NCBI RefSeq assembly: GCF_003334815.1
Contig: NZ_QOWO01000134.1
Reading direction: 5' to 3' (one strand)
DNA from: Escherichia coli
GTDB taxonomy: Bacteria > Pseudomonadota > Gammaproteobacteria > Enterobacterales > Enterobacteriaceae
DNA: 353 bases
Shown: positions 1 to 353 of the stretch, one piece after another
How positions within the stretch are numbered: position 1 is the first letter of the stretch
Layout: each line of letters opens with the position of its first letter
Made by a program: the position numbers and the translations under genes
Notes under the pieces: model-generated
Databases searched by the model: none
What the model was told of the DNA's origin: nothing
Seen by the model: the letters and a program-made list of their open reading frames with translations, nothing else

Positions 1-353
1 CCAGCCACAGAAATCACAGCCCTGTTCGGCATACCAGTGCTCCAGCGTGCAGCTGAAACGGCGGCTTAATTCTGCAATAACGTCGCTTTCCGGCTGACAC
101 CACGGCGTGTCGAAATCAACCTGAATGAAGTTGTCTCCCTGACTACTGATATTCAGGTCATACCCACAAGGCCACTTCACGCCATACCGTTCTGTATACC
201 AGTGATATGCAGAAGGAACACCGTTCAGAACACCGCCGTTAAAGCCATTCACTTCAATATCCAGGCGGGTCGGCAAAACCGTCAGCAGGTCAAACGGCAT
301 GGTTTTTTCCGGCAGTACGTTGTCACACAGACGGTTCCACCACACCGATACAT
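1..353 (-). CDS. Partial CDS for a hypothetical Trp/Cys-rich protein of unknown family; open across the whole window, truncated at the 3' end and probably at the 5' end
   Basis: Seen in sequence: the minus-strand frame with codons at 349-351, 346-348 ... 1-3 has 117 consecutive sense codons and no stop. Codon choice is typical of E. coli-like coding sequence (CTG Leu, CCG Pro, GGC Gly, GAA Glu, AAC Asn, GAC Asp dominate). The other two minus-strand frames are closed by stops (TGA at 282-284 and TGA at 323-325 on the minus strand). The in-register antisense frame on the plus strand is full of rare codons (ATA x4, CGG x5, AGG x2, AGA, CGA) and has no in-frame ATG. An in-frame ATG lies at 300-298; the 17 codons upstream of it (VSVWWNRLCDNVLPEKT) share the Trp/Cys-rich character and preferred-codon usage of the rest, so I favour a start beyond position 353, but a start at 300 cannot be excluded. 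Product family not recognised. Confidence 0.8.
298..310 (-). promoter_or_regulatory. Possible translation initiation site (alternative start): weak GGA Shine-Dalgarno-like element, A-rich spacer, then ATG at 300-298
   Basis: Seen in sequence: the minus strand reads CCGGAAAAAACC-ATG, with GGA seven nucleotides upstream of the ATG and an A6 spacer. The GGA is only a 3-nt match to the Shine-Dalgarno consensus, and the frame stays open and coding-like upstream, so this is more likely an internal Met codon than the true start. Confidence 0.25.

Follow-up and report, generated by a model that had tools for sequence, protein, structure and literature searches.

Which of the cysteines encoded by this stretch of Escherichia coli DNA, if any, belong to a metal-binding or redox site? 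The window, by which we mean the whole stretch of 353 nucleotides that was analysed, encodes a CxxC pair and several further cysteines, and a preliminary description made from the letters alone had proposed the CxxC plus three of these as a candidate site, with zinc ribbons, treble clefs, rubredoxin-like knuckles and thioredoxin-like motifs as models. To judge from an alignment of homologs, the five cysteines so named do not form one site: C261, the second Cys of the CxxC, is old and family-wide, while C208 and C231 are recent and variable.

Identity of the gene

Reading the minus strand from position 351 to position 1 gives a single open frame of 117 codons (VSVWWNRLCDNVLPEKTMPF...SRRFSCTLEHWYAEQGCDFCGW), and the remaining two minus-strand frames of the window carry stops throughout; the frame on which the preliminary description relied is real coding sequence. 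The program-made list of open reading frames for the window holds just two short ORFs, both out of frame. The window is an internal piece of its gene and corresponds to residues 147-263 of a 308-aa DUF1281 plus DUF1281_C (YubB/YccB, Api92-like) protein. Its 353 bases are 100% identical to plasmid pM217_I1 and to many other E. coli plasmids, with the annotation 'DUF1281 domain-containing protein' on every match listed. Among the complete E. coli genomes, the window matches 3855 records in 3032 out of 5426, and the match sites number 3873 on plasmids versus 48 on chromosomes.

Pfam assigns the window fragment to PF06924 (DUF1281; E 1.7e-13) and PF18406 (DUF1281_C; E 2.1e-12), the latter described as a 'ferredoxin-like domain in Api92-like protein', and both domains are carried by the full-length homologs. 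The protein is 100% identical to RefSeq proteins of the WP_001739825.1 type, whose annotated start (MYFSG...) probably leaves out the first eight codons. Starting instead at an upstream ATG, with AGGAG 5' of it, gives the N-terminus MPNWCSNRMYFSG and a protein of 308 residues. M1, W4, C5 and N7, which are near-invariant among the aligned homologs, are all supplied by this upstream start, and with it the DUF1281/YubB signature is entirely present (the M-x-N-W-C-x-N start, D-W, FDTPW, H251, G262 and G269). The copy on the F plasmid has A5 where the coding strand here has a run of A6 (Table 1), and the F copy is therefore frameshifted.

The window is a plain member of the catalogued DUF1281/YubB family and, as an object, already known; with respect to Pfam PF06924 plus PF18406 there is no family-level difference. 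Samuel et al. 2024 (PMC11541004) list it as leading-region family 27, with 1949 members, under 'Uncharacterized; DUF1281' and the names YubB, YccB, YfdA and YfaB. The literature searched on DUF1281, YubB, Api92 and their synonyms describes neither a function nor a metal site. YfjB, a leading-region protein characterised in 2026, is the product of a different, ParB-like gene. NCBIfam holds no family for either the fragment or the full protein, PADLOC gave no match, PHROGs gave matches only to function-unknown families (phrog_37043 and others), and Rfam gave no match to the window on either strand at E up to 1. The phage collection yielded a single match, to a 1.8-kb record without annotation.

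Cysteine content

The five Cys positions given in the preliminary description are exact (7-9 and 16-18 for C-D-F-C, 49-51 for FSC, 97-99 for PWC and 166-168 for WPC, all on the minus strand), and the CxxC is C-terminal-proximal as it had said, at residues 258-261 of 308. On the + strand of the window, the Cys codons TGT and TGC appear as aca and gca. A sixth window Cys, C155, had been missed. Cytoplasmic proteins of enterobacteria contain about 1% Cys; with 6 Cys in the 117 aa of the window (5.1%) and 10 in the 308 aa of the full protein (3.2%), this protein is Cys-rich relative to them. The whole family is Cys-rich as well, with a median of ~9 Cys per protein and 7 Cys-prone columns.

When a 117-aa stretch shifted by one residue relative to the window, with the same six Cys, was shuffled, 23% of the shuffles had a CxxC, as did 26% of those of the full protein, so that the motif alone is not beyond chance and its significance must come from conservation. 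There is exactly one CxxC in the 308 aa, and the other eight Cys are isolated. Downstream of the window, the full sequence has no further Cys and one His only; further candidate ligands, namely C5, C63, C99, H103 and C139, all lie upstream of it. The guess that more ligands could lie outside the window was borne out in so far as the conserved candidates C99, H103 and C5 do so.

Conservation among homologs

Full-length homologs from two database searches, together with Api92, were reduced to 52 representatives with less than 70% mutual identity. The homologs listed are 150 of the 712 or more family representatives, many of their sequences come from metagenome and read-archive assemblies, and below 30% identity both the alignment and the neighbour-joining tree become approximate. 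The features of the window and of the full protein are collected in Table 1.

Table 1. Features of the window and of the 308-aa protein. Positions refer to the 353-nt window, residue numbers to the full protein, and fractions to the 52 representatives.
Feature	Window position	Strand	Evidence and conservation
Internal coding segment of DUF1281/YubB (YccB, YfaB, YfdA) gene, plasmid leading region	1..351	-	Open frame; 100% match to pM217_I1; Pfam
C5	outside window		Cys in 46/52; most conserved Cys; rare replacements Y, F, L
C48 column	outside window		Cys in 28/52; Ser in the protein studied
C63	outside window		Cys in 7/52
C99	outside window		Cys in 30/52; commonest replacement Ser, 10/52
H103	outside window		His in 18/52
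C139	outside window		Cys in 4/52
C155 (NRLCDN)	325..327	-	Translation; in helix 147-156 of helical insert
A6 run of coding strand (T6 on + strand)	303..308		A5 in the copy on the F plasmid
C208 (WPC), just before strand 210-217; lineage-specific, polymorphic	166..168	-	Cys in 5/52
D227-T228, end of strand 221-229, FDTPW motif	106..111	-	Weighted conservation: D227 0.89, T228 0.91
C231, in TPWC loop after strand 221-229; lineage-specific	97..99	-	Cys in 3/52, Ser in 27/52
C247, residue just before strand 248-255	49..51	-	Cys in 35/52; replaced by V, A, G, L
H251...E255, on strand 248-255, near-invariant polar	25..39	-	Weighted conservation: H251 0.85, E255 0.83; H251 in 45/52
C258-D-F-C261, the CxxC	7..18	-	Translation; AlphaFold DSSP; 52-representative alignment
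G262, Gly after the CxxC; kept even in homologs without Cys there	4..6	-	Weighted conservation 0.94; Api92 has GIRGY

The preliminary description had held that a lack of conservation among homologs would argue against a site. By that standard C208, C231 and C247, which vary among homologs, are not ligand-like; C261 holds up as a family-wide Cys (44/52), and C258 (only 23/52) is labile. Val takes the place of C208 in P0002, P0009 and P0014, representatives with 90-97% identity to the query whose clusters comprise thousands of member sequences, the family consensus around C231 is TPWSPP, and C247 is V, A or G throughout one clade of the alignment. Judged by these sequences, C247 behaves like a buried small-hydrophobic position that is unlinked to the CxxC. 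C155 is Cys in 17 of the 52 representatives, with D, G, S or E elsewhere. H251 and E255 are better conserved than most Cys of the protein, the weighted conservation of N7 reaches 0.98, and D137 is near-invariant too. Inferring a site from 'a CxxC plus several Cys' in one sequence over-counts ligands: only C261, plus C258 in the plasmid clade, survive the comparison with homologs.

The two Cys of the CxxC have different histories. Replacements of C261 are always polar or charged (R, Q, H, T, E, N or S), so its conservation is not explained by hydrophobic packing, and almost any residue can stand in for C258 (N, G, M, E, L, S, R, K and others). Parsimony on the neighbour-joining tree gave 5 changes for C261, about 12 for C258 and 2 for H103. 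On the tree H103 has a single origin, so that its presence alongside the Cys counts as one phylogenetic event and not as independent support. C258 makes a CxxC with C261 in only part of the family, and, on the evidence of the alignment, an intact CxxC does not characterise the family.

Almost every plasmid-clade homolog between 44% and 98% identity has C99, H103, C258, C261 and G262 together, as does the ICE homolog P0157 (35% identity). Single losses occur inside this clade (C99S in P0041, P0058 and P0119; C258G in P0063 and P0070; C258E in P0119; C261S in P0096), and the candidate ligand positions are looser than the truly invariant N7, G262 and T228. Of the four, many deeper homologs have C99 and C261 alone, with L, I or V at 103 and M, N, S or G at 258, which makes a four-ligand site impossible there. 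The Api92 clade has other residues at all four positions at once; in Api92 itself they are I99, D103, N258 and R261. Invariance of the four candidate ligands was thus not found across the family (the fractions for C99, H103, C258 and C261 being 30/52, 18/52, 23/52 and 44/52).

Co-variation of the candidate ligands

Co-occurrence was assessed over the 52 representatives by Fisher tests and by phi compared with frequency-matched control column pairs. C99 is never present without C261 (counts 30/0/14/8; Fisher p 0.0004, such co-occurrence values being inflated by shared ancestry), and the phi of 0.50 for this pair lies in the top 0.8% of the matched controls. By contrast with this pair, the frequency-matched control and the parsimony counts removed most of the apparent signal, leaving C99-C261 as the sole pair. 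The phi for C258-C261 is 0.17, which 35% of the matched control pairs exceed and which is not unusual, and the pairs 103-258 and 99-258 are not unusual either once column frequencies are matched. The CxxC claimed in the preliminary description is a real motif, kept in nearly all homologs down to 44% identity, but the co-occurrence of its two Cys is unremarkable and Api92 does without it.

C5 shows a phi of about 0.18-0.20 with C99, C258 and C261, which is within background, and it is retained in the Api92 clade, where the others are lost. A Cys4 site made of C5, C99, C258 and C261 was dropped for these two reasons. For C247, phi is 0.04 with C261, which amounts to no association, and -0.20 with C258, among the lowest 3% of the controls; the either/or relation that this seems to show between C247 and C258 is weak. 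A swap of ligands between C247 and C258 is unlikely, C247 lying, by topology, at the other end of its strand.

Predicted structure and known folds

An AlphaFold2 model built from a 77-sequence alignment (mean pLDDT 94.7, pTM 0.90; secondary structure by DSSP) has strands at 4-12, 210-217, 221-229, 248-255, 260-267 and 270-277, with helices filling 15-201 and 235-244. Its architecture is that of strand 1 and helix 1, a helical insert of ~180 residues, beta2-beta3-alpha2-beta4 and two extra strands, the ferredoxin-like sheet being made of strand 4-12 plus strands 210-277, with the helical insert between them. The model shares its three-dimensional fold with Api92 of Yersinia pseudotuberculosis (PDB 2IJR), which places the protein in the family by structure; Api92, whose crystal structure was solved in 2006, is the only solved DUF1281 protein, and a PDB profile search gave no match beyond 2IJR. 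Api92 differs from the protein studied here in having no CxxC (VNGIRGY in place of GCDFCGW) and in having Ser or Tyr at the positions of C208 and C231. To judge by its name, Api92 presumably comes from a chromosomal pathogenicity island, as opposed to the plasmid leading region here.

In the model, the CxxC sits in a tight beta-hairpin turn, with C258 in the four-residue loop 256-259 between beta4 and beta5 and C261 as the second residue of beta5; followed by the near-invariant Gly, it takes a knuckle-like 'CxxCG' shape. C99-x3-H103 is on the first turns of helix 96-109, outside the window. From the canonical 4-1-3-2 strand order, we infer that C5, C208, the segment T228...C231 and the C258/C261 loop are at the same end of the sheet. 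The beta-alpha-beta-beta-alpha-beta topology further suggests that the helical insert leaves and re-enters at the sheet end of the 256-259 loop, and that C247, at the start of beta4, would be at the opposite strand end from this loop. That helix 96-109 is near the 256-261 hairpin is our assumption about the model.

Note that 'ferredoxin-like' is the name of the beta-alpha-beta-beta-alpha-beta fold only and that there is no Fe-S motif here, the Fe-S type of motif (CxxCxxC...CP) being absent from the full 308-aa sequence. Ferredoxin-like plaits such as ACT domains and ribosomal protein S6 share 4-14% sequence identity with this protein, which differs from them by its ~180-residue helical insert after helix 1 and its two extra strands. 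Among the structural neighbours of the model there was neither a zinc finger match nor a thioredoxin fold. The zinc ribbon and rubredoxin models of the preliminary description cannot be sustained, as they need two knuckles and the 308 aa hold a single CxxC, and structure comparison found no matching fold.

The candidate ligands recall structural Zn sites of the C2H2 and treble-clef type in that a CxxC occupies a hairpin turn, with Gly after it, and a Cys-x3-His pair the first turns of a helix, giving four candidates of the Cys3His type. In a knuckle-plus-helix site of this kind, the candidate ligands would be C258 and C261 of the hairpin and C99 and H103 of helix 96-109, which are kept in the plasmid clade. 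However, unlike in the canonical motif, the helix does not follow the knuckle in sequence: its pair is 155 residues upstream, in a different sub-domain. Furthermore, conservation of the putative ligands is incomplete, and there is no structural match to zinc fingers.

A putative zinc site and its alternatives

We propose, tentatively and with a chance that we would place somewhat short of even, that the plasmid clade has a putative accessory structural Zn2+ site formed by C258/C261 and C99/H103. In this clade, i.e. among homologs of at least 44% identity, this protein included, two ligand pairs would bind one structural Zn2+. The hairpin C258-x2-C261, with the invariant G262 after it, would provide the first pair and the helix C99-x3-H103, outside the window, the second, with the metal holding the helical insert to the end of the beta-sheet. 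Zinc sites of the knuckle-plus-helix kind take their ligands from just such a Cys-x2-Cys hairpin and an i/i+4 pair in a helix. The candidate Zn would be an accessory stabiliser, neither a catalytic nor a redox centre. Since Api92 has the same fold with I99, D103, N258 and R261, the candidate site is not needed for the fold. In families such as adenylate kinase, polar networks take the place of structural zinc sites, and the replacement in the Api92 clade resembles such a swap; Api92 itself has an Asp/Arg pair at 103/261.

The same residues might have no metal or redox role at all, and we regard this as a real possibility, if clearly less than an even one. In such a Cys-rich family, C5 and C247 would be buried small-hydrophobic residues, C99 and C261 neighbouring free thiols at the interface of insert and sheet, C258, C208 and C231 neutral lineage-specific residues, and the CxxC a by-product. 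The median of ~9 Cys per member over 7 Cys-prone columns fits this idea, as does the CxxC in 23-26% of shuffles. So do the ~12 state changes and almost unrestricted replacement of C258, as expected of an exposed loop position, the background level of the 258-261 association, the same fold in Api92 without the candidate Cys, and the losses of single ligands inside the plasmid clade. Against it, C261 is kept in 44/52 and gives way to polar residues alone, a pattern that packing cannot account for, C99 depends strictly on C261, which points to a role in common, and C99, H103, C258, C261 and G262 are kept jointly over 44-98% identity. The original proposal, in which C208, C231, C247, C258 and C261 would together make a zinc-ribbon, treble-clef, rubredoxin-like or thioredoxin-like site, is largely refuted by the homolog alignment and can hardly be right. 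All five are present in this protein and in relatives of >90% identity, and C208, C231, C258 and C261 could share a sheet end by topology, yet common variants with >90% identity have Val in place of C208, most homologs have Ser in place of C231, a whole clade has V, A or G in place of C247, which lies at the far strand end, and a single CxxC in 308 aa goes together with no matching fold.

It would be tempting to see in C258-C261, or in C99-C261, a reversible disulfide serving to switch or to protect the protein upon entry into the recipient cell, as the CxxC is present, the C99-C261 co-variation is the pattern expected of disulfide partners and Ser is the commonest replacement of C99 (10/52). 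We consider this improbable. With thioredoxin-fold CxxC oxidoreductases the protein has only the four-residue pattern in common: here it occupies a hairpin loop and strand, not the helix N-terminus of a thioredoxin fold, and the PDB thioredoxin matches are insignificant (E 0.5-0.9), which also disposes of the thioredoxin-like motif suggested in the preliminary description. Moreover, C258 is too labile for a conserved redox motif, and the sequence opens straight into the conserved core strand, with no obvious signal peptide. The reducing cytoplasm seldom contains stable disulfides, which likewise counts against such a pair. There is equally little to be expected of a functional thiol cluster in which the N-terminal C5 (N-W-C-x-N), with C99 and C261, would act as a nucleophile or as a three-Cys metal or Fe-S active site together with D137, D227, T228, H251 and E255. 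Against it, C5 does not co-vary with C99, C258 or C261, stays in the Api92 clade that lost the others, and has rare hydrophobic replacements (Y, F, L) that fit a core position; no match to an enzyme family was obtained in Pfam, NCBIfam, PADLOC or PDB, and an Fe-S-type CxxCxxC is missing. The attraction of this cluster lies in the conservation of its members (C5 in 46/52, N7 at 0.98, and D137, D227, T228 and H251 near-invariant) and in the shared sheet end at which ferredoxin-like topology would place C5, D227/T228, E255 and the 256-261 hairpin.

A more demanding statement is that plasmid-clade YubB/DUF1281 proteins have a putative, previously undescribed site that is required for activity, whether the discontinuous Cys3His zinc site (C99, H103, C258, C261) or a reactive thiol cluster of C5, C99 and C261; this we hold to be rather unlikely. 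If true, point mutants and metal dependence would for the first time make a protein found in over half of the complete E. coli genomes accessible to biochemistry. The candidate Cys3His site was not found in the literature searched and, if confirmed, would add modestly to what is known. Point mutants of a confirmed metal or thiol site could also serve to probe the role of the protein in plasmid establishment.

Genomic context

The gene is located in the leading, first-transferred region of IncI1 and IncF conjugative plasmids. It is ubiquitous in clinically relevant IncF/IncI plasmids, among the anti-restriction, SOS-inhibition and establishment genes that enter the recipient first. In the IncI1 plasmid pM217_I1, it lies in the leading region between the divergent impCAB operon, which encodes DinI-like, UmuD and Y-family polymerase proteins, and a block running from parM/stbB to ssb (parM/stbB, a DNA methylase, DUF1380 genes, an antirestriction gene and ssb). 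DUF1281/YubB travels with the anti-restriction and establishment genes of conjugative elements, which is a statement about its context, not its function. A Pantoea homolog (49% identity) has the same gene order as the plasmid locus, with polymerase V genes, DUF1281, a methylase, YubE, an antirestriction gene, DUF1380, DUF905 and a ParB-like gene, and a 35%-identical homolog is found in an integrative element, adjoining ArdC, a CbtA toxin, a TraI_2 relaxase and an integrase.

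Cysteine pattern of the DUF1281 family

The cysteine pattern of the DUF1281 family is fluid. Across the family, Cys247 and Cys258, the latter belonging to the CxxC pair, tend towards mutual exclusion (phi -0.20, within the lowest 3% of control column pairs matched for residue frequency): in the Pantoea/Klebsiella clade Cys258 is found together with Val, Ala or Gly at position 247, and many deep branches combine Met, Gly or Asn at position 258 with Cys247. Judged by topology, the two residues stand at opposite ends of strand 248-255 of the AlphaFold model. Position 48 is Cys in 28 of the 52 family representatives, including Api92 (PDB 2IJR), the homolog of solved structure, and is Ser in place of Cys in the window's protein and its closest relatives. 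A sixth in-frame cysteine, Cys155 (NRLCDN), was absent from the list in the preliminary description; this position is Cys in 17/52 representatives, and otherwise Asp, Gly, Ser or Glu.

Coordinates of the features discussed (L001, locus on an IncI1 plasmid with an intact DUF1281 gene; L002, corresponding locus of the F plasmid)
Feature	Window	L001	L002	Sequence
Residues 247 and 258	49-51 and 16-18			
Residue 155	325-327			NRLCDN
Residue 48	outside	about 7706-7708		FLAGCAGLL in family
N-terminus of DUF1281 gene	outside	7565-7591		
A-run of coding strand: A6 in window (T6 on + strand), A5 in F	303-308		8330-8365	CCGGAAAAAACC
GC-rich stretch, ~230 nt, directly 5' of DUF1281 gene		7300-7564	7588-7855	
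60-nt direct repeat, copies 92% identical		8523-8582 and 10702-10761		
Two arrays of 8-bp tandem unit		4027-4119 and 5131-5223		AAGATAAC

Reading frame of the DUF1281 gene

The start codon annotated in RefSeq (L001 7589, giving a product of 300 aa) is probably wrong. An alternative ATG, preceded by the Shine-Dalgarno motif AGGAG, lies 24 nt before it, and the extension that it adds, MPNWCSNR, carries W4, C5 and N7, the most conserved residues of the family. Because the RefSeq start excludes this extension, the annotated protein lacks the best-conserved cysteine, C5.

The frame is altered in the classical F plasmid, which has A5 where the coding strand of the window has A6. The gene is therefore split there into two ORFs, one ending in ...LPEKPCRLTC* and the other beginning with MPFDLLTV, which makes F a natural DUF1281 knock-out; in the PLSDB table no gene is entered at the split site. 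A shift of this sort may also explain many of the family's database entries that are truncated or fused.

Hairpin and repeats around the gene

When the strand bearing the DUF1281 coding sequence was folded as single-stranded DNA, the GC-rich stretch upstream of the gene formed a single long hairpin (dG -61.2 kcal/mol, z -3.84), the stability of which was equalled in 0/200 shuffles. The IncI1 and F versions of this stretch share 96% identity. Its resemblance to the sequence preceding the antirestriction (KlcA-type) gene is only weak (74% over 73 nt). The stretch is a candidate single-stranded-DNA promoter, resembling the Frpo/ssi type known from leading regions.

Elsewhere on the IncI1 locus, the 60-nt repeats flank a segment of ~2.2 kb comprising a small reverse-strand gene and parM/stbB, and each copy falls within a fragmentary ORF whose annotation is a partial or frameshifted hypothetical protein. 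The arrangement points to insertion of the parM/stbB partition module into the small ORF located after the DUF1281 gene in F, or to duplication of a part of this ORF by the module. The AAGATAAC arrays enclose the gene of a ParA-family ATPase together with a small ORF, and look like candidate centromere or iteron-type repeats of the partition locus of this ATPase.
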